Origin: Psammoneis japonica
Lineage: Eukaryota
Length of the DNA stretch: 64,000 nt
Direction: 5' to 3'
NCBI GenBank assembly: GCA_008632985.1
Contig: QPGO01000024.1
Location: 248,001-312,000 of the forward strand
The notes beneath the pieces were generated by a model. The model ran no database searches. It saw only the letters and a list, made by a program, of their open reading frames with translations, and was not told the origin of the DNA. Shown piece after piece: positions 1 to 50,019 of the stretch; the first letter of the stretch is position 1, and each line of letters opens with the position of its first letter. A program made the translations under genes and the position numbers.

Positions 1-3000
1 TGCCATCACTTTGCCATTGCTGCTTGGATGGGGCTTTTGTTCTTCTTTGCCCTTTGGCTGCTGGCTGCACACAACTTGATGAAAGCTTCTCCTGTCAACA
101 GAAGATTGAGCCAGTCCAAGCTTTTCATTTCACTCGTTTCAAGAGTGCATGTGTGAAGTCATTCATTTGACATTTTCTGAAATGGTGCACAACATGATCA
201 CTGCTCAAGGAATGTCATCCCACAAACACCTCTTCTCTCCTCCTCCCGTTTCTCGCATGGACATGCCCCAGTTAAGAATTTTTGCACCCAGACAAAGACA
301 CCATCAAGAACTCAAATTTTGAGCTGGTCTTTTCTCATTTCATGCACATCAGTGCCAGCATGTGCAAGAAGATCTTGGCAGAAAGAAGAGTTTCAGCAGA
401 GTGGAGCATTGCTTCCAGCCCAAGAGCAGCAGCAGCAATGTGGGCATCCAGCCTTTGGTGTGAAAGGTGGCTGCAAAAAGCAAAGGCACCTGGGCCCCAC
501 TTTTAGAAAGTGAAGCAGCACAAACTGCCCAAGATCAACACACCATGGGGGAAAACATGGGCACTGTGCAAAATGTTGAACCATTTGTGGCTTCAGCACA
601 AGCAACACAAATGATGGAAGAGTGCCAAGACACTGCCAGGACATGTCATGCTCCTGCAAATGAAGGCTTTGAGGCTCTTTTTCACAGTGCACATCTCTCA
701 GCAATGTTGAAAACAAGCCTCTGAAGCCAGCTGTCAGCTCTGACACTGTGGCAAGTTCCAAGGTCACAAAGAGCAAGAAAATTGGAGAATTGACTCCTGC
801 TGCAAAAAGAAAAATCTCTGTGCCATGCTCTGATTTGGGCACTGGCTTCACATCTTTCAGACTTGTGCCAGCGTCAATTTCATGTCATCATGATGCATGA
901 GATCATGGGCAGAGGCACAAATGCCAAGAAGCTTGCTTGGCACAGGAAGCACTTTGAACCCCCGGTGCCACATGATTTGCCACACTGCGTGATGACACAG
1001 CTTTGACTCCAGATGATCTGTGCAGTGTTGTTGCCAGAGCCACCGTTGGCATTGTTTGATGGGAACCAAACCCTTCTGTCATGTTCTTGCCTTGTGTTGG
1101 TTGGTGCAAGGACAGCAAGACAATTTGCCAGCAGCTTGACACCAGCCAAGAAGGAATGTCCACTCACTCCTCTGTTTGGTGTCAGCAACACTGCTCAATT
1201 GGCCACAACAACACACTGCAGGTGTGGCACATGTGACTGCACATGCAAGAGAAAGAATGATGGCAAGCTTCTGCAAAAGCTGCCAGCACCTCTCCATCAG
1301 AGTTGTCCTGTGGACATGCAGCACAAAAAAGTGCAAATTCTTCATTGTCTCAAATGATGCTGCCTGTGACTTGACACGTTGTTGGCCACACAATGAGGGA
1401 GCACAGAAACAGAGATGCATTTCTTCATTCTCACATCAACAACAAAGTGAGCCAGCTCTTGACACAAAAGGAGTGGCTCTGCTTGCAGAGCATTGATGCT
1501 GGCAGAAACAATGCCCAACAGATTTGCTGATGCTTGAAGAGTGGGCGGGTTGCCATTTGCCAACAGGGCACAATTTGAGGGACATTTGTGGTGCAGCTGC
1601 ATGTGCTCAGATCTCACTGAAAGTGCTGGCTGGAGTCAGCAACAAGGCCTGTGCCACACAAGAGAAATCCAATTGATTGGCTGCAACATTGGCTTTGCAC
1701 ATGACTGCGCATTTGACCAATTGAAAAGCTGCAAAGAGGACAATGGAGATGGGCTTTTTGCAGTGGCTGCAGAGTCTGGAGAGATTGTGTTCATGCCACA
1801 TTGGTGCAATCTCTTGCAGCCAAGGATCATGCCCATGCAGCAGAGCAAGTTGCAGGATGGCCAATTGATGTCCCAAAAGTCTGCTGCTCCAGCACATTGC
1901 CAAACAAGGAATCTTTTTAGGAAGAAAAATTTGCTCAAAACATCACATGCCACCTTGGTCATTGGCATTGGATGAACCTCATTGTCCACACATTGGAAGA
2001 AATGCATGCAGATTGCTGTCAGCTGTCATGGCATTTGTGATTTGAGGGGTTGCACAAGGTGCAAAAACAAATCTGATGAGTTCAGAGTGGCAGATGCATG
2101 TGCTGGTGTTTTGAAACTGGGATGTGAGAAGCACACTCAGGACAAAGTTTTGGACATCAAAAACAGCAAAAAAATGGAAGAACTGAGAGAAATGCTGTGC
2201 TCAAAAGTGGGCTTGCAGTCTTGAAACATGCAGTCAAAATGTGGAAGCATGGTGGATTGAGCACACATGGCCTTGATGAACCTCTCCCACATTGAGATCT
2301 GTGCAGAGCTGTCAAGCCTTCAAAGATTCCAGGCACAAAGTCAACTCACATGTGGCAACCACTGGAGTGGAGTCCAAGCTTGAGAAGTTCCACGATGTTA
2401 AAGCTTGCAAAGGACTTTGGCAGCTCAGGATGAAGAAGCTCCTTTGCTGATGCTTTGTGTCCAGCTGGAGCACGTGAGCACAATGCTGCAATTCAAGAGC
2501 ATTTGAGGATGGACAAGATGACTGCACCAGAGCATGCAAAGATTGTGCTCATGCCTTTCAAGGGACACTGACATCCTTTCTCAACCATGGCAGGCTCCAC
2601 TGCACAAACAGCTTGGCAAGAAAATCAGGGATCACCCACGCCATTCATTGCAATGTTGGGCAACTGCAAGAGGACAATGGGAGGCTTTTTTCTCCAAACA
2701 TCTGTGGCTGCTGGAGCACACTCAAGAGGAAATCAAAGCACAAGATGATGCACATGACATGTGTTGCTTGTCAAAGCAGTCTCACCGGTGCAAAACCTTT
2801 TCTTTCTGTCATTGTTGTGGCCAGAGGATGTGTGGAAAGAGAATTTCAGGCTGACATGACTGACGTTGTTGGGTGATGCACACCAGTTGTTTCTTTGGTT
2901 TGCCTTTGCATCCACACTCTGGACTTTCCAAAACTGTTTGAAAAGAGCTTTTGCACATCTCAAGAGCACCCAGTTGCAAAGGGTGTGTGGCTGCTTGGCT

Positions 3001-3689
3001 CTGAGCTTTGTGTGCAGAATGTCACAAAACTGAGCCGGCCATTGTTGTTGCCAACATTGTTGTTCTCGTCATTGTCCATGTTGCTGTCACAAGAAGATGG
3101 CAAACTTGTTCACTTCCAGTCTGAAACAAAGATGGTTGTTAAAAGAGGGCCAGCAGGGTGGGAGTGGCAAGCAGGTTTCCGGGTGGCTGACAAGTTGGTG
3201 TGGAGTGCATGGCATGCAACCAGTGCACATTGTGAAAAGTGTGCCCATCTCTGTCTCACTCAGCCCAGAAGGTTTTTCCCTGTTCAAAAACAAGTGCTGA
3301 AAGCCAAGGACACTTCTGTTTTTTGTGCAAAATGGGTGGTGTTTGGCAAGTTCTTAGCTGGTCAGTCTTGTGTGACAGAGAGGTCCTCTGCTGGTGGCCA
3401 ATGGCAATGGCAATGTGTTTGCTGCAAGCCACACAGCGAGTTTGGAGATGGCACGACCAAACACACAACAGTTGGCGAGCCATGAATCTCCAACAAAAGA
3501 GTGCCCCTGTGCTGCTGTTGGGATGTCAGGATGCAGGGCCAAGGAAGTTTTCACAGAACAGATGTCAGAGACACCAAAGAACAAACCAGAGGAGCCAGAA
3601 TGTCCATCGGGTGCAGCTGCACAAGAGAAGGACAAGGCTGTCTGGGGGGGGGGAGCAATGCAATCACCAAACAATGAAACAGGATGCAA

Positions 3690-4320
3690 TCTACAAGATG
3701 CAGAAGGTGAAGGTGTTTGGCACAATTGTGGGACAGTGTGTGAAGGCTGTCTGTCACAAGGTTGAAGGAGTGATGGAGTTTGAGAGGGCCACAAGAAAGA
3801 AGTGGGACATGGCGGTGCTGTTGGAAATTCTCAAGTCAATCTTGTTCAACACAAACAAGAAAATCTGCTTGCAAGCCCAGATGGTCCAGGCTTGGAAGCA
3901 GCTGGCACTCATTCATCAGGATGAAGGAGTGGCACTTCAAGATTGCTGGAGTTGGCTCCTTGTGAACACTGTTGAGATGGTGGCAGGGTCCTGCAGCAGA
4001 CTTGTCCCGGAAGAAATTGCCAAGCAAGGATGCTGATGATGCACAGAAAAAAGAAAAAGGAGCAAGTGCTGCCAATGGAGGGCACCAAGGAACATTGGCT
4101 CATCATCTTGAAAGAAAAGCACTGGCAGCTTGCACTGGAAATTGACAACTGTCCCAACTCAGCTGTGGAGGCACTGCAGGTGTTGGATGCATGTGGGTCT
4201 GACAAGAATTCTGAGGGCATGAGCTTTGCACAAAATGAGAAGAAGCAGATCCAGTGCTGGAAATCTGGAAATGCAACAAGGTTGGGCATGTGAAGAAGGG
4301 CTGTTCTTTGCTCAGTGACA
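3690..4320 (+). mobile_element. Degenerate Ty1/Copia (CoDi-like) gag remnant
   Basis: KVFGTIVGQCVKAVCHKVEG...WDMAVLLEILKSILF resembles the diatom Copia gag pattern (I.GQCS..M..KLE...D...LL..IK). A frameshifted zinc-knuckle-like segment follows (CWKSGN..RLGHVKKGC). Confidence 0.55.
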
Positions 4321-6974
4321 GTGATGATCATTTGTTGGTGGAGTCGGCTGAGGACATTCTCAGTTTTTTTTTTCTGCCAAATCGCCTTTGTTTTTGCTGC
4401 CCCGGCCCCACCACTGAGAATGGTGGGCACATGATGTGCAAAGTGGCAGCCATGCCAACTTGACAAGCATGACTCAGATTCAGTGCAAATTTGTTGTCAG
4501 TGCACTGTGGCCAGAAACTGCACAATTCACCTCACCATGGTGACTCAGCAGCTGCCAATTTCTCAATGGCATTGCTTGAAAGAGCCACAACAATCAACTG
4601 CACATTGCATCTTATGAACTCAAATCCAGGCAGCACAACTGACATGTGAGAGTGCATCTGGCTTGTTGTTGACTCATGCAGGTGAAAAGTGATGGGCAAA
4701 AAATTAAACATTTCAGCTGTTTTTGCTGCAATCAATTAATTTCAAAGCACACAGCAAGGCACACACATTGAAATTCAAATTGCAAGCTGTTGACACATGT
4801 GCCATTGTCATGATGAGTTTGTTGTTGTTGACAGAGTGTGTTGCACTCATGGTCGCCATTGCTCTTGGCACACATGAGGCCAGTCAATTGACAGCTTGTG
4901 CAAAGGAGTGTGTTGGAACGTTGGAGTGCAGTGCAGTTTCCACAGGATGGACAGACAATGTTGCAGTGAATGACATGCACTGACAAGATTGTTGATGATG
5001 TGGTGAATTTGTGCTTGCAACTCATGTTGAGTTGAGGGTCTTTTTTGCTCCCTTTTTGGCTTCTGTGCCTGATTGACACAGCAGCACCAGTGGCAACAGC
5101 AATGGAAATGTGTTTCCAACCCATGTGGCAAGTTTGGGGATCAAGGAGACTGAGCATGCACCTGTCGGCAAGCTGTGAAATTCCAACATGTGGCCAGTCA
5201 CAGAGCTCCTGCATCCAACAACTCCTCCGCATGGCTGGCAAAGACACCACCCCACCTCTGTGCATCACCACCCTCTGTTTTGTTTGGAGGGAGAGCTCTG
5301 TGGCCCAATTGTTGATCAAGACCTTTGATCAACAAGTGCTCCAGGGTCTCTGCAGCAATCATGACTGTTTTTCTCCCCCCAAGCTCTGAGTGATGGATTT
5401 CTCAAGAGAGCAGCAACAATGATGATGAGGTCCATTTTTGTGCATTGTGCCACAGCCCCTAACTTGTCAAATGTGAGTCACACCCTTCCCTGGGGTGGCT
5501 GCCATCAGGCCCCACACTGTTGCCACCAAAAGGGGCAATGAAAACACTGCTTTGGTTTGCCCACATCCAGCGCCATCATGGGCCATTGAAAACACACATC
5601 ATTTGGTGTGATTTTGGCAACAAAAAAGCCTGGGACAAGAAATTTGAGGAAGAGTTCAACCCTGGCTCCTTTGAAAGGGAAGCCACATGCCATGTCATGT
5701 CATGAAATGTGGCAGCAATGAATGTGGTCGTGCAGCTCTTGCTGGGGCAGAGCTGCTGACCAGTCTGCACAGCTTTTGTTGTTCATCAACTGACAAGTTG
5801 GCTTTTGTTTGAGCAGAAGCAGCAAGAGACAAAATGATTTGTTGCAGTTTTTTCAGGTGCAAGCAAATCATGTTGTGGATCTTTCCTGCCTGCCAGCTCC
5901 TCCACAGCAAGCCCACCCTTTTTTTTTGCTGAACGTCCATTTTTCCCCTGGCGGCAAGCCCAGTGGTTGTGCATGGACACAAACATGTCACATGTTGTGC
6001 CAACCATTCTTAAACCCGTTGCAGTCATGATGAAGGGGTGCAACTCGGGGTGTGATTTTGGGGTGTGCACGCGTCTCTGTGCCCCTCAAAAATTGCAGCC
6101 AACAATTGCCCCTCCTGGAACATTCCTGAACCTGCCATCTCAAGACCATTTTGTCAAAATTGTCAATGCCTGCATGTCATGTGCTTGCCATTGAGGTGGC
6201 ACAGGCACAAAAATGCACTGTGGCACTGGATGGACAGAAATCTTGAATGTTTCTGGGAATCAGGAATTTTGTCACCAAGGTTGTTGTTTTGAAAATGTTG
6301 TTGTGTGGACGTGTGAACACATTTGTTTTCCTGCAAAAAATGTCTCTCAAAAATCAACGCTGCTTTTGTTGCAATGCACTGATGTCTTTGCACTGCTGTG
6401 TGAACACCACGCCATTGCAGCAACACATCATTCTCATGACAAACTTTTCAAGTGGCACATGACATGTTTTTTACTTTCTGGATTTGGCAGCATGCAACGG
6501 AGACCCAACATGATGCACGTTGGAGGTCTGCATTGAACACCTTTGCCAAGACATCCATGGGAGATCCTTGCATGCATCCTCTGCATGGACTTCCCTCACA
6601 TTGCTTGTGGTGACGTGACCACCATTTTCATTGTTCGGCCATCCGGGCAGTCAATGGTGTCTCCCTGTTGACTTTCAATGGTCCCTTGGAACGTGTCCTC
6701 CAGCAAGTCAAAATGGCCACAATTGAAATTGTGCTTCTCACAAAAGTCAACTGGCTCACCCTCCTCATGCTCCTGTGGCTCCCCCTGTTTCTTTGCATGA
6801 ATTTCCTTGCAGCCTTCACAAGGGGCCCACGGCTCTGGGATGTCATCCACGATGCTCATTGTTGATTGCACAAGAGTGAGAGCATGTTGTGCACGGATTG
6901 GTTCCAGCTTCCAGCAGCTCAGCATTTTTCTAAGCTTTTTGCCACAACAGACAAACGAATTTGGATTCTGCTGA

Positions 6975-8030
6975 ATGCAAAATGGGGTGTTCTGTGAAAA
7001 ACTCCAGGATTCAAAATGGCAGTTCTTGTCAGACAAATCTGCACGCAAGCTGTGCACCAGTTGGAGAAGGGGGTGTGGGTGGAAACAAATTTGCAACAAG
7101 CAGCAATGCCAGCAGCAGAGTTGGCAGAGCAGGTGTTGTCAAATTTGCACCAACATCCAGTGCAGCAGATCATGTCTCGACGTGAGGTTGAAAACTCAAG
7201 GCTCTGCCTCATGGCAAGCCAGGCACAAGCAGAACAATGTTGCCAGCCATCTCCTTTGGAACTTGCCTGGAACAAGTGTTGCCAATGATGACAGCAGCAA
7301 CAGTTCTGACAACAACAATGGCAATGACAGCCACACACTGCAGTGGACTGAGGATGAATCTGCTGCCAACAAACGCCATCCTGAATCAGAAGACGAATCT
7401 GAAGAGGAAGAGGATGAGCTGAAAGATGACAGAGACTGTTGTGTGTCACTTCCATTGAAAGAACCAACTGAGATGATTGAAAAAAACATGGTTTGCAAAT
7501 GCTGCACAAGTCCTTTCTGTGTCACTGCCAATGAAGTTAGCTTGTCGTGTGCCATCTTGTGCAGATGTGACAAAGGACACGTCACAATGTTGGAGCCCAA
7601 GACTCTTCCCACTGGACACCAGAACAATGCTGTTGCACACACCATCAACATCAAGTCTGTGCTTGCGTGCCACTTGACCGGCTTGGGCAATTCAGACCTC
7701 CAAACAACATGTGGCATCTTGGGCCTGTGCTGTTTCTAAAGCCTTGGTCCACCATTGAGAAGAAGTTGCATCCAATCATGGAAGAAATTGCAAATGAGTG
7801 CATGGATCACAATCTGAAGAAAGAGTGGGAAGCCACCCATGCACAACGGCTCCCCGGATTGGCTGGTGGAATGGACACAGGATGGCAGGCACGTGGGTCC
7901 GGCAACTCATGCAGCTCCAACAGTGGCCATGCATTCACCACCGGCAGCCTGAGCAGCAAAATCATTGCAAAGAGCTTTCCACATGTTTTTGAAGATGTGT
8001 GATGAATCTAAACAGAAAGGTGCCAAAATC
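6975..8030 (+). mobile_element. Degenerate Mutator-like transposase
   Basis: CKCC...CRCDKGH, HTINIKSVLACHLTGLG and MDTGWQARGSGNSCSSNSGHAFTTGSLSSKII match the Mutator-like motif DMGWQKRSSG..Y.S.SGHAF.IG..S.KI. Broken by a frameshift/stop at ~7739. Confidence 0.7.
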
Positions 8031-8450
8031 ACAATGTTCGAGATTTGGCGAGCAATGCTGAATGAGGGGTGCATGGAAACTTGCAGTTTCTTCCCACAAA
8101 CAAGACAAGGGGAGTGTGAATGAGTGCTCCAAACACTTTGTCACAAGAAATGTTCAAGTTTCCATTGTCCGGGAGAGGGTTTCAGTCAGTGAGGTGACTT
8201 TGACAATTTGTGCAGAAAACACACTGAGTTCTACACAACAGAAAATTGGGCCCAAATTTGCACCCGTGCCACCTCAATTGTCACGCTTTGTTGCCAAAAC
8301 AATGTCACACATTTGAATGCTCACATGTCATTGTGGAAAATGCGCAACAAAGAAGACCATCTGGCAAGGCATTCTCATTGCTTAAATTGCAATGACTCAA
8401 GAATGGAGTTGCTCAAATGAAAGTCACAGTTGTCAAACAATGCTTGTGAC

Positions 8451-8712
8451 TCATGACAACTCACAACAACTCACGACAACTCACAACAGCTCACAACAGC
8501 TCACGACGACAAATTTCACTTGACACACTGCAACTCGCGACAATTCTTCAGACAGTGCACATGCACACCAACATGCATCACAACATGTCCAATCACACTT
8601 GGCATCTGAGCACTGTGTGTGCAAGTGCTCCCGACAACTCATGACATTTCTTGCTCAACTCCCAACAACTCACGACAACTCACGACAGCTCACAACAACT
8701 CACAACAGCTCC
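8451..8712 (+). repeat. Two clusters of a 10-bp tandem repeat (consensus ACAACTCACR)
   Basis: tcatgacaac tcacaacaac tcacgacaac tcacaacagc... at 8451-8510, and again at ~8655-8712. Confidence 0.8.
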
Positions 8713-11090
8713 AGACAAGTCAGGTCATTTGATGCAATGACTTGGCAACAAGCAGCTCTCGCCAAAACAATGATCGTTGCTTGTTTGACTTTAAGTGTGG
8801 GTTGAACAAATGGGCTGCATCTTAAAAAATTGTCAAACACTGGTCAGCAGACATTGCAATTTGTTGGGATTGCCAAAATGAGAATGCTGTCAATGTCACA
8901 TTTGCAGAAAAGAAAATGCACAAGGTGGCCGATTCGGGAATGTTCCTGAGGCATGTAATTTTTGCCTGCAATTTTTTGCAAGTGTCTGCAATTTTTCACA
9001 CAAAAACAGACTCATCATCGTCCATGATGGCAACAAACATCAGAATGTCAAACAACAATGGCAACCAACAATCAACAATGAACTTCAACCAGCAAGAGAT
9101 GCAAGAACTTGTTGATGGGGAGCCATCATGACATGGCAAAAAATGGCAAGATTGCCATCAACAGACAACAAAAAAATGAAGGCAAGTTCATGCCATTTCA
9201 GAAGAAAAACACATCACATGGTCACTGAAACTTTGGCTGTGGATGCAATTGCAACACACGATGTCAATCACACAATTGCAAAAGACCACACTTGTCAGAA
9301 CAATGATTTGACATGCGCGCAAGGTTGCAGCGGAGCCGCCAAACACCATGGTGTTTTGATGCTGTCAACAGAATGTTCAGCTGTGTGCACAAATGAGTTG
9401 ATTGAAATCAGAGATGCAGAGTTGTTCCTGCTTTGTTGTCAACAATTTTGAGGAACATGCACTCAATGCATGTGTCATCTCTGGCAGAATTGCAGACATC
9501 CAATTTCACACTCTTGCAGTCGTGAGAAAATCGGGTGTGATTTTGGGGTGCAAGTTGATGCAATGGGCATTTTTGCACCTCCAAATTGCACCCAAATTTC
9601 CACAACTGCAATGGGTCTCAGTGTCAGGCCCCCAGCAGAAAAAAATGGACGTTTGGCAGAAACAAAAAACTCAGCACAGCAAGACAACGTGCCAGGCTCA
9701 GCAATGCCCAGGGCTGGCAGTTGGTTGCCTCTTTCAATGTGTTGGCTCAATCAAGAGGTGGTGGTGAGAAGAATTTTGTGCCAAGCCATGTTTTAAAACA
9801 AAAGAGAAAGCAAACACAGCTGCAGCACAGGCACCTGTGCTGCACATGAAATGAAGGTGGTGCGGCAGATGAAATGAAAATTCAAGGGTGTCATCAAGCC
9901 CATCTGTGATCATCTGTGGTGCTGAACAAAGAGCTGCAAGATGTTGAAAGTGACCAAAAGCTTGTTTCACAGCATCACAAAGCTCTGCCTTCTTGGACAG
10001 CCAAAAAACTGTGATTGCCCCACAATGACAAATCAATCTCAGGGCAAAAATGTTGTCAAGATGCAGCAAAAGCTTTGAGCTGCAGCTCAGATTCTAAAAA
10101 CCTGACTGGAAAAAGCTGGTGTCCTCTGAGAAGTGCAGCAATTGTTCTGCAGGAAACTCAAGAAATTGAAGTGCAAGCTGTGCAGAAAAGCAGCAAGCTG
10201 AGCATGCCTGGAGCAGCTGCGTGTTCAGTGCAACAAGAGACTTGGGCAACTCTTTTGGAAAGAACAGCTGAAAACCAAAAACACTGCAACATGCAAAGGG
10301 GCTTGCTGCCAGTCTTGTTTCAAGGCACAAAGCAACATGCTGGCACATGAAGTGCAGCAAATGGCTTTGCTGCAACCAAGCACCAGCTGAAGTGTGCTGC
10401 TGGTGCCCTTGACAATTGGGTTTTTGCCCTGGCTTGCTCTGCAGTGGTGGTGGGCCAAGGCAACAATGGGTGTCATTTTTGGAAAACAAGAGCAGGGCAT
10501 AACATCAAAGGGGGTCTCAGTGATCTTTGCTTGCAAGATGAGTGCACTTGCCCCCCCCTTGGCAACAAACTTCAGCAACTCAACGCTCACAGTTGCCAGC
10601 GTTTCAGCTGGTGGGAGCCTTGGTGCCATGACAACAAAAGAAGCCTGCTGGGTGCCACCCAAGTGTCAAAAAGTGCTGTGTGGGGAATGTGCCTGCAGCA
10701 GCCCCAGCGGGCTGCAAGCAAGTGTGGTCCCTGAGATGCTTCTGTGCTCCAAGCCCATGCTCCAAAATGATCAAAAAGACTGGAGCATTTGCACTTTATC
10801 CCGAACGCTGGGGAGTGGCTCGTGTTGTGGCAGACAGACGCGCTCCAAGAGATGTTGCGCGTTCATGGTGCGCGCGGAACTCGGAACGCGAGGTACGGTC
10901 GTAGGTCTAGGTAGACGAGCGAGAGACGAGACGGAGTGAGATATGCAGACAATGATGGATGCGACGACGACGACGACTCGATCGGAGTATGCCAGCTCAC
11001 AACGAGTGCGAAACTGTGTGAGTGACCGAGTGAGTAGTCAGTCGAATTTTGCCACCAGCTTGCTCTTGAAGTTTTGGTTGTTCCACGCCA

Positions 11091-12239: not shown

Positions 12240-13697
12240 AACCTAGAATGCACCTACTGCATCCAAATCCCTCGACTCAAATTGCAACTACATCATACAC
12301 CGGGAGCCCCAGCAGGAGGCTGTCCCGTTTGCTTTCCCGCTCTCTTAACTTCACCCACCAAAAAGAGCTTGTTAGCAAGGACGGTTGCAAGATGGCAGCA
12401 CTGTCTTTTGACACGGATGTTATCCCAGACTCCTCGTCAGCAGGAAGCATTAGGTCGCCAGTCTTACAGTCTAAACCCACTGGCAATCCTGAGGATTCAT
12501 CATCATCTTGCAACCTCAAGATGCTCTCTTGTACATCAAATCCAGAATTCTCCGCAAGAGTCTTTGGAACAAGCAAGAGTGCTTCCGCAAAGGCTTCTAC
12601 ACCAAGCTTTGCTTGTCCCTTTGTTGTCTTGATGATTTTTTTTGTCTGAGATGCGTGGATGTAGCCAGTTGAAGGCCCTGGCTCTCCTGGAGTGACAAAC
12701 CCATCCTCAGTGCCGCCATTCTTGACCACACAAAGTCCATCACCAAATGGCGCCCTTGATCCAGTTGATGGTGTGTGTTTGTTGGGTCCCTGCAGAAGGA
12801 GAGTGCAGCTCTTGGGATGATGACATTTCTCCACAAAGGCAATTTTGCCATCCCCTGGGGGGAGCAACTCCGCAGACCTTTCTTCCGGCCCATGAAAACT
12901 GCTCCTCATCCATGTGTGTTCAACCAAATGAGAATGAGAGAACCTCCACATGCCAAAGTGAGGTGCTCCGTGTTGCACTGCTTGGCATGGTGCAAGCATG
13001 AAATGCCTTCTTTTTTTTGGCAAAAATGTCAAGCGGCAAAATGGGTCAACTCCCTTTTGACCATCATGACAAATCTCTCACTCTGCTGCAAGCAGGAGCT
13101 GTTGTGACAATGATGTGTTGTGGGCTGGCACATCAAGGGCATGATGAGCAATGGAGCAACAGTGGCCATTCTAACCAGCTTTTCTTCTTGGTTTGCAGCA
13201 ACAAGAGACCACCCACAAGCATGATTTGTGGACGCAGCCCTTGGCGGCAAAAAGTGGCCTGCACGCTGCGGCAATTCTCTGTGCACAACAAACACTTGAG
13301 GTCATGCCAACATTGACTCCAGCTGTGCTGTCTTGAGAGGTTGGTGTGCTTGGGCCAAGCCAGCATGCACCTGCACATCAGCATGTGGTGCGCTGGCACG
13401 CACAGGTCAGGGGGTGCTGCTGCACCGGCAGATTGAGAGGCAGCACCCCCCTTGTTGTGCAAGAGAACAACCGCGCACTGCCATCTTTGGAGAGCTCAGT
13501 TCGTCCTGTGCCACTGACCAGCATCCTGAGAGTGCCCAGAGGTCTGAGGTTGCTCTTGACAATGCTCCACAGCCCCGCCCCCGGCTGAGATGCCCCATAA
13601 CAGGCATTGACTCAGAACTCAGAAGACTGCCCTCGTCTGCCCCGGGCATGACACAAATTTTGGCATTGGGGTTGAGTTCTTGAAGATGAGATGTCAT
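12240..13697 (-). pseudogene. CCT6: T-complex protein 1 zeta (CCT6) pseudogene
   Basis: Fragments in shifting frames: MTSHLQELNPNAK, VKSNLRPLGTLRMLVSGTGRTELSKDG, FVEKCHHPKSCTLLLQGPNKHT, KGQAKLGVEAFAEALLLVPKTLAENSGFDVQE. Multiple frameshifts. Confidence 0.85.
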
Positions 13698-13958
13698 GTT
13701 GCTGTTGCTGCTTCTGTCATTGAGAGTGCTGGATGAGAGAAAGTAAGAAACAACAACTCGAAGATGCGGGGCAGTTGGAGTGGGGGTCGAAGCAGGCAGG
13801 GTTGAAGATCGTGTCACCGCGCGATGCATCGCGCGAAATATGCGCGCCAAAACAAACGCAAGCCAGCCGAGCCCAAAATTTCTCGCACCGCAAATCAGAA
13901 GATCAGCCTCACGCCACACTGTTCAGCATTCAGCAGTTACAGTACGGCATCTATCACC

Positions 13959-17267: not shown

Positions 17268-17282
17268 AATCGGGGTAAAAAA

Positions 17283-23132: not shown

Positions 23133-24192
23133 TGTACAACAAGAACTTCTATTGAAATAGAGCAAGAGGAACTGTCTTCAATTCCTATTCTTATCCTCTC
23201 AGAAGTACGCTTTTCTGTTACGACTTTCACGAAGCGTGGTGCGTCGGTATCAGGTATCAGGGACGGAAGATCTCGACCACACATCACCATTGCGGCCGCA
23301 ATCAATTTTCAGCGTCTTTGAAAGCATATTCAAAGCTGATAACCTGTTACAGTACACTGTACGTAGAGCTTGTACCAGACAGAAACCGGATCTAAGCATA
23401 GCTAAAGTACGTTCAATTCTACGGGGAGTTGCAGGAAAAAACGTCTACGCATGGTTCCACGCGTTTTTTCCCTAAAAAGGCGCCACCAGCCCGCGCCGCA
23501 GATAGCTGGCTACTAGTCCCACTACTAGCAGTAGCTAGAGTGGAGAGAGCAGGGCCCTACAGAAACGAACCCACTGTATGTACCGGGCGGCCGTACTGTA
23601 CTGCACCTACCAGAGAAAGAGAGCAGACGATTACGACGACTGCCAGCATGCCGCACGTACGTCGTACGTGCAACAGCGAAAAGCCAAAGGCGTGAGCACT
23701 GCTGCACTCGTACTGCCGAGTTCATCACCGAGTCAAACTACAGTCTACTCTGCTAGCTAGAGCAGGCCCTGCTGCTGCTACAGTAGCAGCTGTGCTAAGA
23801 CTGTTATTGAAAGAATATTTTGTTGTGCCAATCAGTCACTAATGATCCTAAATCCCAATCTGTGCATTGTGTCAAATGCGCGCGCATCCTGTCCGCTGGC
23901 GTCCAGCTGCCCTGTGTTTGTGCCAGGCGCTGAAAAAGAAGATGTGTTACGACTCTGTCGTTGTGAAAATTATGAGCTAGTTTAGAGTAGAGAAAATGGG
24001 ATCGTGCGAACAGGGAATCTTGCCAAATCCCTGTTCGTTCGCACTTGGATCGCATCAAATCGATCGTGCGCTCGCATTGTGGATCGTGCGAATCAAGCCA
24101 TCATGCGCCATGCACGAGTGATGTCATCGTGTGGAATCACGCTACCATCGTGGGCCAGACGACGGGCTAGTGTGCTTCACACGGATGCTCTC

Positions 24193-25463
24193 TCAGCATC
24201 CTTCTGGAATTGCCTGAGACCTGGAGCCACGCCCTCCTGTGGTCGTGCTTCCCAGGCACGTGTCAACAACACTGCGTTGCCACGTGCAAGAGGCTTGTGC
24301 ACGGTCTCGCCGTGTTGTCCAGCAGCGAGGCATGCTGCACAGCTCCCAATTGCAGCCAATGAGTCCAACACCGTCGCCTGTGGCATCAATCAACTTGACT
24401 TTTGGATTCTCCACAGCGCAGCATGTCGAATCTTCCGACTTGAGGTCCACATGAATGATCCTGGACCCATCGCGACCACCCAACAAATGAACCTTGTTGA
24501 TTTTCCTAGAGACCTGGATTGGCAAGGGCACGAGGGATGTGGAAGACAGGACCTCAGAGTCACACTGCCTCATTGAAGACAGCTCATCTGAAAGAGCTTC
24601 AAGGCGCTTGCAGACGTCACGGAGTTCATCATCGCCACCGTGGTTTCCCCCTTGGGCAGTGGCTTCATCAAGGAGAACTGCGTGGAGAGCGTCCATGTCC
24701 ATGGAGTGCTGTGGCCACTGGGAAACGCAACTGAGCATCCACCCATTGCTCACAACAGACAGCTGGATGCCAGAAAGGTCCGTGGTGCAAACACCAGATG
24801 GAGCCACAATGACCAACATGACATGATTGGTCTTGGTGACAGAGTCCTTGCAAGTGGCTTGCAAAACCATGGGCTTGAAGCTTTTCCAAGAACCTCCTTG
24901 CCCACCACCACGTGCCTCCATCACAGAAGCAACACCAGCTCCATTCATGACAGCAGCTGCATCGTTGTTGTTTGCAGGAGCTGGAGCCGACACCGTCCGA
25001 CGAGTGCTGTCAAGGCCACCCGAGAACAGCTCTTCGTCGCCGTCGTCGGTGTCTGTGGCCAGATGAAAAAAAAGAACACCGCGCGACGCGGTCAAATGAA
25101 AATGCACGCGCAAGCAACACAGTGACGTCACTCACATTCATTTCGAATGCATGTGCGAACACGGTGAAAATCAAAACTCACCGTCAGGGTTCTCATTGCT
25201 GTCGTTCATCGTTGACGAAGATTGAACCCGGTTTCGTCTTTGAGCCTGTGCAAGCCAGTGCGGAACTTGTCCAGTGGATGGTGCATGAACTCTGCACGCA
25301 TCTGCTGGATCTCTTTTGGCGTCGCTCCAGCGCTTGCCCTCCCATCCATCAGCATCTCCTTCAAGAGTTTGCAGTCGGCAGACCCCTTGCGCCACACTGC
25401 TCGAAGGGGGCCGGCGGCCTCAGTGTCAAGAACCGATTTGGTTCGTTGGTTGAGTTTGGGCAT
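24193..25463 (-). pseudogene. Degenerate accessory ORF, probably of the adjacent PIF/Harbinger element
   Basis: ORFs 25206-25508 (WRKGSADCKLLKEML..PKEIQQMRAEF..PLDKFR) and 24193-25131 are Tyr-free and divergent from the transposase. Harbingers typically carry a second ORF. Confidence 0.45.
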
Positions 25464-26402
25464 GGCTTCTTTGGTTTTCTCTTTTTTATGAGAGGATTGA
25501 TGGTGCACAGTCGAGAGTCGTCAAGATCAGCGTTCGCATTGACGGGCAGCAATGAGAACCCCATTTTTGAATGGGTCACGACCAACTTACCTCACCACTG
25601 TCCGCGGGACACTCTTTTCAAATTTGAACAAATTCCAACCGCCAAAGTGAGATTTGAGAAAACACCAACCGCCAACATTGAGAAAGGGCCTCTTGACAAT
25701 GAAGATTCCCTCAAGACCACACGAAAAATGTTCCGAGACCACACAAAAATCGTTCCCAAATCACACCCAAAACGATTTTCAGCTCCAGAACGATGACTTT
25801 GGACCCACTCAACTGAAGAATGAGTGGCTGAATCCTGAGCTTCGGCGTGTGTTTGCGACAGCACTGATGGCAAACCAGCTCCTGATGTTTATTTTGGCTT
25901 TTCATTGGCATGTTTCCGTGCGCTTTTCGTCCATGAAAAGGCGATTTCATTTTGATTTGTAGAACAAGAATGCTTTTTTAATGCCCCACCAACAACGGAC
26001 CATGGTTGTAAAATTCTGTGTCGCATGTTGCATGTAAACTGCTGTGTCAGTTGAGCCAAGAGCACGCTTTGGAATGGTTGTTCTGCCGTGTTCCGGTTGA
26101 CAAAATGACGCCCAAAGTTGCCCATTGTGAACGTCCCGAAGTCACCATTCGGAAACCACACCCGAATCGCATTTTTTTCGCATTTTCTTCAAACACAACG
26201 GAACCTCACCAAAGGCCTCTTCCAATGAGAACCCCAACTGCATGAAGACGACAAAACATGGTTGTCAAATGTAAAACAACTGCCACTCTAGAGCAGCCAG
26301 CTGGAGACTGGAGACTGGCCACTGGCAGCAGAGACTGGCACAAACGGCGCAACAGAGAAAAGACTGAAGCAACACACTGTGGCACATTGCTGGTTGCTCA
26401 TC

Positions 26403-27320
26403 ATGAGACTGCCCAAAGAGGCCGCAGAGCACTTGGCACAGACGATCATTCAGAAGCCAAAAGGGTCAACTGCAGTGTGGAAACGTCGGTTCGCACCACA
26501 CTTCTGCACCCCAGAAGAAGTGGCACCTGAGTTGTGGGGGCTTCTCCTTGACGACGGGAAAATGCCACGAGGTTTTTTGCCCATTCACATGCTCTGTGCC
26601 CTTTGCTTTCTCAAATTGCACGAATCTGAGACAGTCGTTGCTGGCATCTGTAATAAAATCCATGAAGACACGCTGAGAAAATGGGTTTGGGTCGGAGCTC
26701 AACTCATTGGACAGTTGAATTTGGTGCGCACCATTCCAGATGGGACTTGCATGCATGAAACAAATGGGCTGACACCTTGTTCTTAGATTCGCTGGGAAGA
26801 CCGCTTCATTGATGATGATGGCAGCAGATGTTTGGTGACACTCGACGGCACTGACTTCAGAGTCTACGAGCCATCAAAATTCGATCCAACATGGCTCTCC
26901 CATGAATTCCACGGTGCTGGTCTGCGGCATGAAATTGGAGTGTGCATTCAGACAGGGTGGATTGTTTGGGTCAATGGGCTGCACCCAGCTGGGTTGCCGG
27001 ATCTGAACATTGCTCGTGAATGGATCGTTGAAGAGCTTGAAGATGGCGAGATGCACCCAGCCGACGGTGGCTGCAGCGACGGGAGCCAGCACAGCTCGAC
27101 TCCATCCGGCCTAAGAAATGCAGACGAGGCTGTGAAAACAACAGCAAGGGCAAGGCATGAGGCTGTCAATGGATGGTTCGAGCGTTTCGGAACACTTGAC
27201 AAAAGATGCCGCCACGCGAAGGAAACACATTGCCACGTGTTTCATGCCGTGGCCAACATCACACAGTTGGCCCTCATGATGGGTTGCTCACCATTTGATG
27301 TGGATTGTTTTGACAACTAA
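26403..27320 (+). mobile_element. PIF/Harbinger DDE transposase, mutated (likely intron ~26723-26787)
   Basis: VTLDGTDFRVYEP, SHEFHGAGLRHEIGVCIQTGWIVWVNG, ADGGCSDG and RARHEAVNGWFERFGTL. Positions expected to be Tyr read as His/Cys. Confidence 0.85.
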
Positions 27321-28414
27321 AATTAACAGTGGAAAGCATGTTGTCGCCAAGATGATGTTGCCGTGAACGTTCCTTAATCTCATTGTCGATGCAACGCCTC
27401 GCGAGTTCGATCGCGAGCAAAAGCGAACCCCTCCTCCCCACCACAGGCAGCCTGCAGCAGCGCCCTACAGCACTGTCATAGGGCCCACAGCATGCGCCGG
27501 ACTGCATCTCCGTGACGCACGGGCGGGTGGCGGCAGCGCGCCCGGGGATGAAAATGCACCCACCGATGACGCAATTGTGACGTGTGCTTCACGCGCTTTT
27601 TCGTGGTAAGCCTTGCGGGGTGCAGACAGACGCCGGCAGTGCATCAGCGCATGCATTTTTTATTTCTGATGATTCCGCGCGCAGATGATGGGGATATCAT
27701 GCCGTACGACAGAGATGCCGATGCCGAGCTTCAAAACCACACTCTTGTCTCACACCCATTGAAGCTTGTGGTTGGTTGACTCCATTTCTCTTCAACCAAA
27801 AGCACTCACTTTTTCCTCTCGCATGGCAAATTTCAAGATTCTCAGCAACAAAAATCAAAAGCACAAAACAGCCCTCTGTTCGTTTCCACGACAGACACAC
27901 CCAGCATGACAACTGGCAGACAAGATGATGATGTTGTTTGCGGGGCAATGCGGCAGACAAACAATGCTACAAAAAAAGCTGCCGCGTGTCACATCATCCG
28001 TGCCATCAAGCAGCAGTGCAACAATTGTTTTTTCCTGCAACTCCCGGTACTGATAGAGATAAAAGGTACGCAGTACCAACCACAAATCAGATTTTCAAAA
28101 ATTTGAAAAAGAGATGATTCGAGCTAAAGATCGTCTCACACTCCAACATCGTCCGAGTTTTCCCTTCGTTTTCTTTGCTGAAGAAGACAATAAGATGCTA
28201 CACATGGTGATGGAAGAGTGCTGCCATACCCGCGTTAGACCTGGAGGCAGGCTTGCAATGTTGAGCTATCACGGCATGGAAACGTGTAGAAACGAATACG
28301 AGTTACCGAAGACGAACTAAAAAACAATCCAAGATAGCCAGGAGTGCGACGCTGCTGCAGAAAGGGTAGAAACGATAAAACATTAGCGTTGGCTATAGAT
28401 ATCATCAAAGCACG

Positions 28415-41186: not shown

Positions 41187-44100
41187 TGCAGGCAACTGTG
41201 GGAGACGCGGCAAACGCGGCAACACAGCAACACGCACACAACGGCGATACATACAAGTACATTATCCCGGGAATACAACCCATGTTGTATTCCGTAGTAT
41301 TTCTCCGTTGAATTCTACACATTGTACTGACCGTTACCCCACTTCAGCGACCGTATCTTCCGTGTTCTTGTGGAGGAAGCACGGGAATTTTTCCCGCATC
41401 GAAACAACCGGGTTGTTGCATGGTACGTCGCGTTTTTGATAGATTTATGCAACAACACAACCGAGACCATGCCGTCTAAAAAGTATTACAAGCCAACCTT
41501 GATAGCACTCACGTTATTTCTTGGCGGGGTGACTTGTCAATGTGAACAAGACTTCACCAACCAGAGGCCATTCAAACAACCCCCAACGATGTCGTGGTGG
41601 ATGGGTCTAAAGGCGCATGGAACGCCCGAACCAGGCGACAACAGCTTGCCCATGCAAGCAAGGTCAAATTGGTTGGAACACTGGAGGAAGCCGATTTCCA
41701 GCTGCATGTCAAACCGGTTGGTGCCGTGGAATGTTCTGTCAAATCAAGGCAACCCGACACGATCAACTGACGTAAAAAACCCCGTGCCATGTTTGACACT
41801 CACATTCAATGTTCTTGTTACATGCAGTGCGTGTCTAGGGCTTCATTCTTCCTTGTTCAATCCACAACATCGCTGGAGCGCCCCTTCCAATTGAAGCATC
41901 ATTTCTGTGCGCACGGCATCCAATAAATCCATCTGCACAGAATGGAATTTTGCACAACAAAGCCAAGCCTCTTGGATTCCTTGTACAATTTCCATTGACA
42001 ATGAAACAAGAATCGCAAAAATCGGCCCAAGGGATGTTGAGATGTTACCGCCGCCAACTCTTTGCCATAAATTCCAGTGGCAGCTCAATTTTGATTGTTC
42101 AACGACAAGCTCCGAAGAGAAAGTCAGCACCACAAAAACCCAAGCCCCGTGGACACCTTGTGGCACATGAGTCAAAATGATGACAAGAAGTGAGAAACAA
42201 CACCAAAGGTGCAATGGCACATCACAAAAATCCGTCATGTTGATGCTGCATTCTCACAATTTCTGCACTGCACCTTCAGCGACAAATCCGCCTCGACGGA
42301 TTGAACTCAACGCCAGCACCACTAGCCCATCACATTGCTTGCATGAAAGCTCCGAATGCTGCGAAAAGAAACGGGAAAATGCGGCAAAAATAGACACAGA
42401 TGTCAGCGACGCAAGGGAGGCCATTGTCGCGATCGTTTTCTTTTTTGGTTGTCTTCGCAGCTGCGCGTCTTGGAGGGTGCTGCAGGTTGATGTAGCGGAA
42501 GTCGGTGTCTGTGCTTTCCTGGTGACCCTGTAGAAGAAGTGCTAGACCCTGCGCAGTTGTGCCCAGGGTTGCATTCTTTCCGTCTGCCTCCACAATGCAC
42601 ACCTTGTGTCCAGCTTTGGCCAAAGTTGGCCACATGTCCGGGTTTTCCTTGGTGCACATTCAGCGCACATTCTACGCAGTTGGCCAACATCGACTCGAGC
42701 TCCGATGACTGGTTTCAGATTTTGCGGCCGGCTCGCGCGAATTTTTCGTTTTTCGACGTTTATCATGCAGCATTTCTGTTTGAAAATGTCCACAATTATG
42801 TTGTATTTTATTCATCATACACATGTTAGCACTCGCCACTGCACGTTTGTGCCAAAGCACACGCAGGGCAGATCGCTTCACCAAGCTCGATTCGAACGAA
42901 ATCCCGTGGACTCAAGGACAGTTTTGCTTGCACAGACCCTTTCAGTCGGCAAAACCACAGCATGCTGCAGCACTTGGGTACAAAATTACGCAAGTGCTTC
43001 ACCGTGTTAAAAAATGGCAACCACGGCGAAAGCACGAAGGAAAGAGACAATCTGTTGTCTGCCCTGTTTAACACTGGGACGTATCTTGACTGTACAAACT
43101 GATTGAACAGACACACTTGACAACACGCAATGATCTTCTGCCGAAGGAATCTACTTTGTCAGTCATTTAGAGTCTCACAAAGTGTCGCCAGTTAATTGCT
43201 GGCGTTTTGCGCGGCAATTTGGCGAGCGACTCACCGCACTTTACCGTGGTGAAACAAGGATTGTCCAAAATTTTCGATTTGACATCTCTGCTAGCGAAAG
43301 TTTCGAGTTGCACAACCTTTTCATGTGTCGAGCAACAGTTGCACAACGTCAAACCGCTTGCATTGCTCATGTGGACGTTCTCCACCCCTCAAACTTTTCA
43401 CCATGCTTTCATCACGTAATTTTGATTTGCAACGTAGAATTCTGCGTAGTTTGTGTGTGGCATGCTGTGGTTTGGCCTTTTTCTGAAAACTGAAAGGGTT
43501 TGCTGCATTGCTTCGTTTTGTTTTTGTCTGTCGTGCGTGTCGGAGCGATGGTGAAAATCCAACCGCCAAACCATTTGAACGCATTTGTGAAAGTTGTTGA
43601 ACAATGTGCTTTTGTTGCTTTTCTCTCATTCTTCCGAAGAGCAAAGCAACAACAGCCAACCAGATGGTTTTAATTGCTCTCACGTCTCCCACTCTCTGGT
43701 TTGTCCACCCAGCTTGGGGGGGCTGGGATTGGGGATTGGGGCTTGCAGAGCCGCTTGGCAAAACCACCCCACTCTGCCAACCAAGACCTGCTCCAGTCTG
43801 TTGCTGGGAAATGCAGGAGAACAACCAAGAAGGGCAACAACAGTTGCCCTGATTTAAGGTGCACGCAAATTGTCATGGACCAAGTTCTGTGTGCCATGCA
43901 TTGCACTGCAGTCACGGACAAAGATGTGGTTGGAGATTGGAGCAACACAGCTGCGTTGTGTGGCCGTTGATCTGCTGCATGTCAACTGCAGCCCAGAGAC
44001 TGCACAAAATGGACAATGATGGAAATGTCCAGAGCTGCACTGGTGTGACCAGAGGGTTGATCATTGCTGGCGCATGGGCGCTTTGCTGGTTGGCCATTGT

Positions 44101-45005
44101 CAACACAACAACAAACATGGATTTGAGACAAAACATTTTACGTTTCAATGATTGATGATCTCAGGTTTGTCAATCTTAGAGTGAGGGACATCTGGGGTGC
44201 TCTTTGTCTTTGTTTGGATGCTTGTCTCCCACCACAAATGAGAGCTTTGCAACACCTGTGGGCATGGAAGCATCACAAAGTGCCTGATCTGCGCCATCCT
44301 CATGACTGCATGCCTTTCAAATCAACTTGACAATGGCACTTGTGGTCTGCAAATGGCTCAGCACAATGAGTGGAGAGTGAGTGATGTCCTGCAACTCATC
44401 ATCATGATCAACACACTCTGTTTTGTGCTTGCAGTCCCCTGCCCTTGTGGCACCTTCATCCTGTCCAGATGCCCACGTCAAGCAAGTTGGCAATGAGCCC
44501 AAATGCGTGCTCCAACTTTCAAGCTTTGCCATGGCTGCCCTCTTGTGTGACAAACCTTGGCCAAACTGTTGAGAGAAGAGAGGCCAGCAGCAGCACTGTT
44601 GGCTTTTTTGTGGAAGCTGAGCTGAAGAAAAGTGCTTTGTTACAAGATTTGGAGTTGACAAAGATTGATGGGGTGGCTTGGTGGGATCAGCCTGCATTCA
44701 CAAGCTGGGTCCCTTGTCCAAAGGGATGAGAAAAGGGCAGTGGAAGGAGGCTTGTTTTGTGTGGTGACTCTCCAAGGAGCAGAGAGATGCACATTGTGAA
44801 CTTTCCTGTCCCCACGGTGGGTCCCACCGACAAAAAAGTCCAGAAGATGCATGTGACCCAGCTTCCAGTTTTGTGCAACAATGCCACAGCTGCCCACAAG
44901 CTCCATTGAAAGCATCAGTTGAAAGCCTTGTTGTTGACATTTTTGGCTGCAGAAACAAGTGGGGCTGTGTGGTTCTGTCTACAGTCACAACATAAAAGGG
45001 TCTTG

Positions 45006-45372
45006 TGCACTATGCTCGAAGAACGAGTGTAAACGAAAGTAGAACGAAGTTCGAAAAGTGAAAATTATGAGATTAATTTTTGCTCTGTGATTTTTGGTTT
45101 TTCCGAACGAGTTCTCAATGGCCTAAAGCTTCTGCACTGCTTCTACAGACAAAAGGCCTTTCGGAGAATATATTCGTGACAACAGATTGTCCGGATACGA
45201 TTGCTATTGACACGTAAGATGTCAACATCGTCAATCGATCGTATTTGCAATTTTCGACATCCGATCAACTCTGTGTGATCGTTCTGTCCTTTGTACGTAT
45301 CCACGACTGTGGTACGATTGACATATAAATAATATATAATCATAAATATGTATATAACAGCCGCATGCTGCA
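45006..45372 (-). mobile_element. Solo LTR (367 bp), same family as the element at 55838-60563
   Basis: Reverse complement of the LTRs at 55838 and 60197, with TGCA ends. Flanked by a CTTG duplication (45002-45005 and 45373-45376). Confidence 0.93.

Positions 45373-49977: not shown

Positions 49978-49978
<1 letters not shown>

Positions 49979-50015
<37 letters not shown>
49979..50015 (+). repeat. (CT)n microsatellite
   Basis: About 18 CT units. Confidence 0.95.

Positions 50016-50019
<4 letters not shown>

Follow-up and report, generated by a model that had tools for sequence, protein, structure and literature searches.

TpA and CpG loss from delimited blocks of transposon remnants and a host pseudogene in the diatom Psammoneis japonica

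The stretch of DNA analysed here (the window) comprises 64,000 nucleotides of the diatom Psammoneis japonica (assembly GCA_008632985.1, contig QPGO01000024.1, positions 248,001 to 312,000), in which genes of ordinary composition are separated by sharply delimited blocks that have lost nearly all of their TA dinucleotides (TpA) and, in five cases, most of their CG dinucleotides (CpG) as well. The losses of TA and CG are two separable transition processes that have affected delimited non-functional DNA. Very probably, two mutational processes have rewritten these stretches, which are situated between expressed genes and consist of remnants of transposable elements (TEs) and a defunct gene copy, and the process directed at TpA acted first. 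A first-pass annotation of the sequence had proposed a saturating A:T to G:C process at TpA on delimited blocks, and this proposal is supported: the process is mutational and lies on top of ordinary CpG decay. The annotation had also been aware of no described pathway that carries such a signature. Hypermutation of TpA to TpG or CpA has, however, been measured in the chlorarachniophyte Bigelowiella natans, where integrated DNA of nucleocytoplasmic large DNA viruses (NCLDVs) and virophages is affected (Mettrop et al., bioRxiv 10.64898/2026.01.13.699255). A search of the full-text literature returned no paper on the loss of TpA from diatom repeats, and the signature was matched only by this preprint.

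Composition of the erased blocks

The extent of the depletion is best appreciated in the leftmost block (block A), where bases 1-10790 contain 25 TA, compared to 746 predicted from base composition and 443 predicted from the density in gene regions (Poisson P ~4e-152), and 99 CG compared to 602 predicted from base composition. A recount of the sparse TA described in the first-pass annotation, 1 in bases 1-300 versus 11 in bases 17281-17580, gave exactly the same numbers. The excess of TG and CA was also recovered, with observed/expected ratios (o/e) of about 1.9 in positions 1-10780 versus 1.1-1.2 in gene regions, the latter showing o/e of 0.59-0.63 for TA and ~1.0 for CG. The G+C content is 0.47-0.54 in the blocks and 0.48 in the genes. 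Sharp edges had been described as well, and they were located, at the resolution of single sites, at about 10797, 13744, 28048 and 54050. Block A, which continues to the left of the window start (position 1 is already erased), ends at 10797-10802, block B extends from ~12662 to 13744, block C from 23988 to 28048, and the right edge of the largest block (F) falls at 54051-54066. The edges are resolved to tens of bases, and the adjoining genes have o/e of ~0.6 for TA and ~1.0 for CG. The coordinates of the blocks and of the elements recognized within and around them are collected in Table 1.

Table 1. Erased blocks and recognizable elements of the window (o/e, observed/expected ratio; LTR, long terminal repeat; TSD, target-site duplication; ORF, open reading frame)
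Feature	Positions	Strand	Composition or basis
Block A, saturated	1..10797		o/e (1-10780): TA 0.03, CG 0.16, CA 1.85, TG 1.92
Mutator-like transposase remnant (block A)	7751..7969	+	PF20700, E 9.9e-8, residues 61-133 of ORF 7571-7999
CCT-zeta (TCP-1 zeta) pseudogene	12296..13697	-	frameshifts, in-frame stop, internal deletion of ~residues 100-296
Block B, erased	12640..13744		o/e (12600-13740): TA 0.05, CG 0.27, CA 1.69, TG 1.84
Block C, TA-only erasure, Harbinger/PIF-like DNA transposon remnant	23990..28047		o/e TA 0.12, CG 0.79
Harbinger-type DDE transposase frame (block C)	26292..27317	+	DDE_Tnp_4, E 0.006 at 26787-27317; one in-frame TGA at 26784-26786
Block D, partial TA loss, CG kept	41520..43500		o/e TA 0.27, CG 0.86
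Block E, saturated	43500..45001		o/e TA 0.07, CG 0.24, CA 1.75, TG 1.79
Solo LTR, 367 bp, within an erased block	45006..45372	-	TSD CTTG/CTTG; 27 TA, 22 CG
Block F, saturated	45377..54050		o/e (45400-54000): TA 0.04, CG 0.10, CA 1.88, TG 1.80
Tandem duplication (block F)	45965..47639	+	copies 45965-46779 and 46801-47639, 91% identity including gaps
LTR retrotransposon	55838..60563	+	TSD ATGC/ATGC; LTRs 55838-56204 and 60197-60563
Block G, TA-depleted LTR-element interior	56600..59400		o/e TA 0.18, CG 0.91
RT_RNaseH weak match (block G, LTR-element interior)	~59011-59112		Pfam, E 5e-4
Block I, saturated	60568..62300		o/e (60600-62300): TA 0.02, CG 0.17, CA 1.98, TG 1.76

The total of the four pyrimidine-purine (YR) dinucleotides is practically the same in the blocks and in the genes (0.2425 vs 0.2412), while TA + CG drops from 0.099 in the genes to 0.010 in the blocks and TG + CA rises from 0.142 to 0.232. 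A constant YR total, in which TA and CG have been moved into TG and CA, points to transitions at TA and CG and leaves little room for transversions. The two conversions, when applied to gene sequence, reproduced the profile of all 16 dinucleotides in the blocks (r = 0.97, compared to 0.70 for the unconverted sequence), and the fit without the four YR dinucleotides was r = 0.82 compared to 0.58. The conversion model also yields the secondary changes seen in the blocks, where GC goes up and AT goes down, and neither AA, AT nor the other A/T-containing dinucleotides are depleted beyond its prediction. This profile bears on a candidate source which the first-pass annotation had put forward, namely a Pol-eta-like polymerase that makes errors during repair synthesis (WA to WG). 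TA does belong to the WA motifs, and Pol eta errs most commonly by A to G; yet such an origin is hardly credible here, since AA is not depleted (o/e 1.24-1.34 in the blocks vs 1.00-1.13 in the genes), AG is not raised consistently, and the constant YR total stands against the transversions of this polymerase.

In three of the blocks (C, D and G) TA has been lost while CG is kept, and the reverse is found in no block. The loss of TA is thus separable from the loss of CG and seems to precede it. As a footprint, the loss of CG fits the decay of methylated CpG, with CG o/e of 0.10-0.27 in five blocks, and DNMT5-type CpG methylation of diatom repeats has been documented (PMC9998398, PMC5124317). 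The products of the conversions are balanced between the strands: the large blocks contain 1241 TG vs 1288 CA, and 978 vs 991, and along the blocks TG and CA follow one another at random (runs-test z of 0.04, 0.43 and -0.66; autocorrelation ~0), with no strand-coordinated runs. In a self-comparison of the 64-kb window, the blocks were not repeated, with the exception of the tandem duplication in block F. Its two copies are separated by 30 mismatches, 10 of which make up 5 double differences of TG against CA; the simulated mean for such doubles is 0.15, and a value of 5 was reached in 0 of 20,000 simulations. The doubles are the outcome expected where one ancestral TA or CG has mutated independently in each copy.

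Sequence context of the surviving TA

The few TA that survive in the saturated blocks (n = 61) are not a random sample, as 23 of them lie in TTAA and the dinucleotide is preceded by T or followed by A in 56; the share of TTAA is 23/61 in these blocks versus 33/1028 in the genes (Fisher P 2e-16). TA without a TAA half-site occurs at 25.0 per kb in the genes and at 0.21 per kb in the saturated blocks (0.8% retained), TA with one half-site at 14.4 and 1.39 per kb (9.6% retained) and TTAA at 1.31 and 0.97 per kb (74% retained). Retention in the class with one half-site is close to the square root of that in the class with none (about 9%), as would be expected if the adenines mutate independently and an adenine that precedes another A is resistant.

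A model with four hazards, set by the 3' neighbour of the adenine and acting on the two strands independently, was fitted to the ten symmetric contexts, under the assumption that the ancestral TA contexts were similar to those of the gene regions of the window. The saturated blocks are described adequately (deviance 6.1, 6 degrees of freedom, P 0.41), with hazards of 3.2 for TAT, 2.5 for TAC, 1.6 for TAG and 0.13 for TAA, and so are the partial blocks (P 0.12), with hazards of 1.4, 1.0, 0.4 and 0, respectively. A context-free model is rejected for both sets (P 3e-29 for the saturated and 2e-11 for the partial blocks), which rank the contexts alike. The counts fit an order of TAT > TAC > TAG >> TAA, in which the A of each strand mutates independently. 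When the unmutated ends of the LTR element served as the baseline, retention in the same three classes was about 9%, 27% and 69%. It can safely be said that TTAA is much more resistant than other contexts; its immunity is not proven, because the ancestral context frequencies were assumed.

Contents of the erased blocks

The affected sequences include remnants of Mutator, Harbinger and LTR elements, all of them selfish, together with a pseudogene of the host chaperonin subunit CCT-zeta. A Pfam scan of 134 stop-to-stop ORFs from the blocks gave 5 with a family match at E <=0.01, of which Mutator, DDE_Tnp_4 and RT_RNaseH were kept as TE remnants; a sixth ORF, at the edge of block B, matched Cpn60_TCP1. 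The remaining two matches at this threshold, Apc5_N and Toxin_TOLIP, were judged to be due to chance. The Mutator-like remnant is the sole recognizable domain of block A. A search for its homologues gave none, and a six-frame read-through of block A returned no family (0), the Mutator-like remnant not being recovered there. Most of blocks A and F has no family match at all, and no viral domain occurs among the matches.

The Harbinger-type transposase in block C preserves enough of its sequence for the coding consequences to be followed. It was compared with the best 150 of 1998 database relatives. In ORF 26787-27317, CAT, TGC and TGT stand at the conserved Tyr columns 48, 96 and 174, which are 71-91% Tyr in 101-150 homologues; at two Phe/Tyr columns the codons are CAC and TGC, and 56 of 70 conserved columns are otherwise intact. 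The replacement of Tyr by His or Cys noted in the first-pass annotation thus holds in this ORF, at three of three conserved Tyr columns. Intact members of the family are not equally devoid of TA: the homologues keep Tyr in 134/148 cases at column 48 and in 134/150 at column 96, and the median Tyr content of the best 150 is 3.5%. No terminal inverted repeats were found at the Harbinger block, as would be expected if both ends had mutated independently. About 10 of the 150 database homologues are themselves nearly devoid of Tyr, which has given way to His or Cys at the conserved columns; those with 0-1% Tyr are P0243, P0248, P0310, P0379, P0304, P0281, P0301 and P0269. Elsewhere, then, erased copies of the transposase have been annotated as genes.

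Block B is the remnant of a host gene and not of a transposon, and it is erased nonetheless. It covers the 5' two thirds of the CCT-zeta pseudogene, the 3' end of which (12296-12640, the last ~340 bases) is TA-normal. The best named matches of the chaperonin fragment are from Cyclotella, Thalassiosira, Conticribra, Skeletonema and other diatoms, followed by Triparma and Ectocarpus. Conserved columns are kept at 91 of 177 positions in the erased part versus 69 of 82 in the TA-normal 3' part, and of 10 changed conserved Arg residues 7 are now His, Cys or Gln (CGN to CAN or TGN), the signature of CpG loss. The erasure of the pseudogene stops ~500 bases past the end of the neighbouring convergent ORF. 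The two coding remnants also bear on whether the TE families might be natively poor in TA, through selection or codon usage. TA is mildly low throughout the window (o/e ~0.6 in the genes), as such an explanation would have it; it is nevertheless scarcely tenable, in that family members elsewhere keep both Tyr and TA, the host chaperonin pseudogene has lost TA too, the loss is equal across reading frames and non-coding parts, and the contexts that survive are of a kinetic and not of a coding kind.

The LTR sequences of the window behave differently from the erased blocks. The 367-bp LTR, present in three copies, is the only high-identity dispersed repeat in the window, and all of the copies keep 27-28 TA and 21-22 CG; the two LTRs of the retrotransposon differ at a single site, TA in one and TG in the other. 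The coding capacity of the element's interior is degenerate, and a read-through gives one weak RNase H match only. Both LTRs and the adjacent 0.4-0.8 kb of this young element are TA-normal (o/e 0.77), and only the middle 2.8 kb is depleted. The o/e of TG is 1.61 in block G compared to 1.14 in the element ends, that of CA being 1.29 in both. The presence of an intact solo LTR inside a saturated block suggests that the process works in bursts and not continuously. The retrotransposon is inserted exactly where the TA-normal stretch 54050-55837 meets the saturated block I (60568-62300), and the position of its TSDs at this junction of compositions (55834-55837 and 60564-60567) indicates that the site was already a block edge before the insertion. 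When the element was removed in silico, the ORF of block I (then 363 aa) and that of the TA-normal neighbour (498 aa from stop to stop) did not join into one frame.

The same footprint can be found in environmental DNA. Metagenome contigs scanned with the transposase alignment gave 80 loci, of which 16 have a TA o/e <=0.30 over the gene; several of these 16 are near-duplicates, and the number of independent elements is below 16. In two conserved Tyr columns, His or Cys occupies 20 of 32 cells in the 16 TA-poor loci versus 4 of 120 in the other 64 (Fisher P 3e-13). Five of these environmental contigs contain sharp TA-poor blocks with CG kept and with normal flanks, and they repeat the context gradient of the window, retention in the three classes being 14%, 23% and 69%; the segments were picked by eye for low TA, and only the context gradient is informative. 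An artefact of assembly or base calling, for example the misreading of modified bases in methylated regions, would suit blocks that are probably methylated. It is very improbable on several grounds: unrelated metagenome assemblies have the same blocks and the same change of Tyr to His or Cys; the blocks of the window carry the frameshifts, deletions and stops of old pseudogenes and enclose an unmutated LTR with its TSD; and, as can be reasoned, strand miscalls at palindromic sites should conflict with each other and leave some TA and CG, yet both are nearly absent. The process in B. natans, moreover, was measured by short reads (10.64898/2026.01.13.699255).

The window as a whole is an intron-poor region of a eukaryotic nuclear genome, the genes of which include an MFS transporter, a CTF18-like AAA ATPase, Bmt2 and SKA1. 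The CTF18-like protein shares 56-60% identity with its best homologues, and the only named match among those listed is from a Bacillariaceae metagenome-assembled genome. Within block A the CG o/e is uneven, 0.07-0.16 over positions 1-5500 and 0.22-0.38 over 5500-9500, at an equal loss of TA, which suggests that pieces of different age have been juxtaposed. Just outside the block edges, near gene starts, there are stretches very dense in CpG (26 CG within 10801-11000, a further cluster spanning 13810-13868), which resemble unmethylated promoter islands marking the boundary. Between two erased blocks lies a 494-aa ORF of normal composition (54274-55758, minus strand) without a Pfam family, which may be a lineage-specific gene. 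The saturated block I, in which TGA is frequent, contains an uninterrupted frame of 369 codons (60502-61608, minus strand) that the LTR insertion has cut short; no family in Pfam and no relative in the protein atlas (best score 0.78) corresponds to it. Over 62300-64000, TA-normal and TA-poor stretches alternate (overall o/e TA 0.37, CG 0.68), and a short direct repeat is found at 63023-63159.

Mechanism, targeting and comparison with known systems

The observations can be accommodated by a mechanism in two steps. The first and faster process would be a TpA-directed A:T to G:C hypermutation that turns TA into TG or CA at random, hitting the adenine of each strand independently and only after T, whereby TTAA would survive. 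The second, slower process would be the ordinary decay of methylated CpG to TpG and CpA, leading to an end state with neither TA nor CG. The chemistry of the first process may be the enzymatic deamination of DNA adenine, yielding hypoxanthine, a base that is read as G, and the enzyme may be an ADAT2/TadA-like or another deaminase. Such an enzyme would be recruited to silent or foreign chromatin, and not to repeats as such, and would act in bursts; the system would then be of the same kind as the TpA hypermutation of B. natans.

Several observations weigh against this scheme or limit it. The Harbinger ORF contains two changes of Lys to Glu that fit poorly, of which one would be A to G in TAA and the other lies off TpA. 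The CCT-zeta pseudogene is silent on the loss of Tyr, as its three well-conserved Tyr columns lie in the deletion, and the TG/CA doubles of the tandem copies may stem from CpG as well as from TpA. With a TTAA-richer baseline, such as the ends of the LTR element (~4 per kb), TTAA would be relatively but not fully resistant. The gains of TCA/TGA in the partial blocks exceed those compatible with strict immunity of TAA, a comparison with the gains of CAA/TTG that is confounded by the ancestral baseline. Block G shows a sense-strand asymmetry (TG o/e 1.61 vs CA 1.29) that is absent from the other blocks. Finally, since TpA is its own complement, the deamination of adenine is indistinguishable from a lesion centred on thymine.

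The last two points each invite an explanation of their own. The modified base could be thymine, if an oxidase of the TET/JBP type made 5-hydroxymethyluracil or 5-formyluracil at TpA in silent chromatin, which would mispair with G and give T to C changes. Given the symmetry of TpA, a rule in which V-T-A is susceptible and T-T-A resistant fits the counts equally well; in dinoflagellates, 5-hydroxymethyluracil is enriched at TpA and TpC, and 5-formyluracil causes T to C mutations. We nevertheless regard this route as improbable, considering that TadA and ADAT2 act naturally on an A that follows U, at tRNA positions 33-34. The authors of the B. natans preprint likewise favour adenine deamination, with ADAT2 as the candidate (10.64898/2026.01.13.699255). 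The asymmetry of block G, in turn, lies within an LTR retrotransposon and would suit the editing of RNA (ADAR-like, A to I) or of cDNA during retrotransposition, followed by integration of the edited copies, and the preference of ADAR for a 5' U is discussed in the same preprint (10.64898/2026.01.13.699255). Editing of this sort is highly unlikely to have produced the blocks: the erasure extends to a DNA transposon (Harbinger) and to a host pseudogene, TG equals CA in the large blocks without strand runs, and AA is not depleted. Within block G itself the one-sided contexts survive equally (10 TTAB and 10 VTAA), and the LTRs belonging to the same RNA are untouched.

Deamination of adenine would be the simplest chemistry, and what directs it has to be considered separately. 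The first-pass annotation had described the erasure as restricted to repeats, a description to which the window lends no support: the blocks are single-copy in the window, the CCT-zeta pseudogene is erased, and the three-copy 367-bp LTR is not. The position of the edges at gaps between genes and at CpG-dense gene starts, together with the partial erasure of CCT-zeta, favours a boundary of chromatin state. That the LTRs are spared, and that the erasure ends abruptly within the LTR element, would also fit a rule of homology and length similar to that of fungal repeat-induced point mutation (RIP), whereby duplicates above a length threshold are mutated and unique DNA is spared. For such a homology trigger speaks the erasure of the CCT-zeta pseudogene and of the LTR-element interior, which halts abruptly in continuous sequence, as does the shortness of the spared repeats (367 bp), near the length threshold of RIP in Neurospora. 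The DNMT4 enzymes of diatoms are, in addition, related to fungal RID (PMC9998398). On the other hand, one tandem duplication aside, no further copies of the blocks are present in the window, and the edges at inter-gene gaps and CpG-dense gene starts fit a chromatin boundary equally well. The target in B. natans is reported to be single-copy and to be mutated during asexual growth (10.64898/2026.01.13.699255). Taken together, a homology trigger is rather unlikely, and recruitment to silent or foreign chromatin is the reading adopted here.

These findings raise the broader hypothesis, possible though less than probable in our estimate, of an old defence that spans the stramenopiles, alveolates and Rhizaria (SAR) and is shared by diatoms and chlorarachniophytes. 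A DNA adenine deaminase would act at newly silenced chromatin and rewrite 5'-T-A-(T/C/G)-3' in bursts on either strand, leaving TTAA, and together with CpG decay it would irreversibly erase invaders and dead genes. If true, this would explain why much of the repeat content of diatoms resists classification. The finding of a saturated footprint in a further algal lineage, distant from the first, and also in environmental contigs suggests that this type of genome defence is probably widespread and not peculiar to one strain. Erased DNA loses all of its Tyr codons and its TAA and TAG stops and gains long false ORFs, which affects both gene prediction and repeat annotation in diatoms. Repeats without a classification are reported to make up 40% of the Cyclotella cryptica genome (PMC5124317). 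The trinucleotide rule may serve as a fingerprint for testing candidate enzymes and the published B. natans mutations, and a natural DNA adenine deaminase would be of interest for base editing.

RIP has its mirror image in a mutator that removes TpA, a process of which there was no description before 2026. Both inactivate DNA irreversibly by one class of transitions in a dinucleotide context, with sharp edges, and leave unrecognizable repeats behind. RIP, however, proceeds by C to T changes (CpA to TpA in Neurospora) that create TpA, whereas here TpA is destroyed and G+C rises at the sites; accordingly, the hallmark of RIP, C to T with new TpA and lower G+C, is not seen, the G+C of the blocks being gene-like. 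RIP is also premeiotic and needs duplication. The one dispersed repeat family of the window has been spared. The decay of methylated CpG shares with the blocks the loss of CG to TG and CA and the change of Arg to His, Cys or Gln, but it cannot remove TpA. APOBEC3 and ADAR in animals resemble the present case as deaminase-type hypermutation of invaders with a preference for the neighbouring base, yet their substrates are single-stranded cDNA or double-stranded RNA, and the runs of G to A or A to G that result are strand-biased, whereas here both strands are affected equally and independently and the targets comprise DNA transposons and a pseudogene. In ADAT2/ADAT3 and TadA, the class to which the candidate of the preprint belongs, the natural target A34 is in all cases preceded by U33, and this U-A context agrees with the one found here.

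The closest parallel is the process in B. natans (10.64898/2026.01.13.699255). In mutation-accumulation lines of this alga, A to G or T to C changes, every one of them at TpA, accounted for 230 of the 231 new mutations in two integrated viral regions, one from a giant virus and the other from a virophage; only some of the lines were affected. The rate is given as ~6e-7 per site per generation, ~1000-fold above background, and amounts to ~1e-5 per TpA per generation when computed from the preprint's figures (211 mutations, 6169 TpA and 3132 line-generations). Clusters poor in TpA and rich in CpA + TpG are enriched there for DDE and reverse transcriptase domains and for genes that cannot be annotated. 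An ADAT2 homologue is proposed as the enzyme, activity on DNA being cited for some ADAT/TadA proteins, and the main text of the preprint deals with neither CpG, diatoms, trinucleotide context nor TTAA (10.64898/2026.01.13.699255). The two cases have in common that the changes are exclusively transitions of TpA to TpG or CpA, that they fall on delimited non-host or silent DNA, and that the process is apparently not constitutive. They differ in the host, a chlorarachniophyte (Rhizaria) as opposed to a diatom (stramenopile), and in the nature of the record, which consists of measured new mutations in B. natans and of a historical footprint here. The NCLDV region of B. natans has a Rho of 0.45, with a 5% cut-off of 0.43 for TpA depletion, whereas the present blocks reach saturation at TA o/e of 0.02-0.05; here, too, the loss of CpG is coupled to that of TpA and a host pseudogene has been hit. 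By analogy, the blocks of P. japonica probably represent the same kind of process in another lineage, to which the saturation, the coupling with CpG decay, the host pseudogene as a target, the spared LTRs and the context rule are new.

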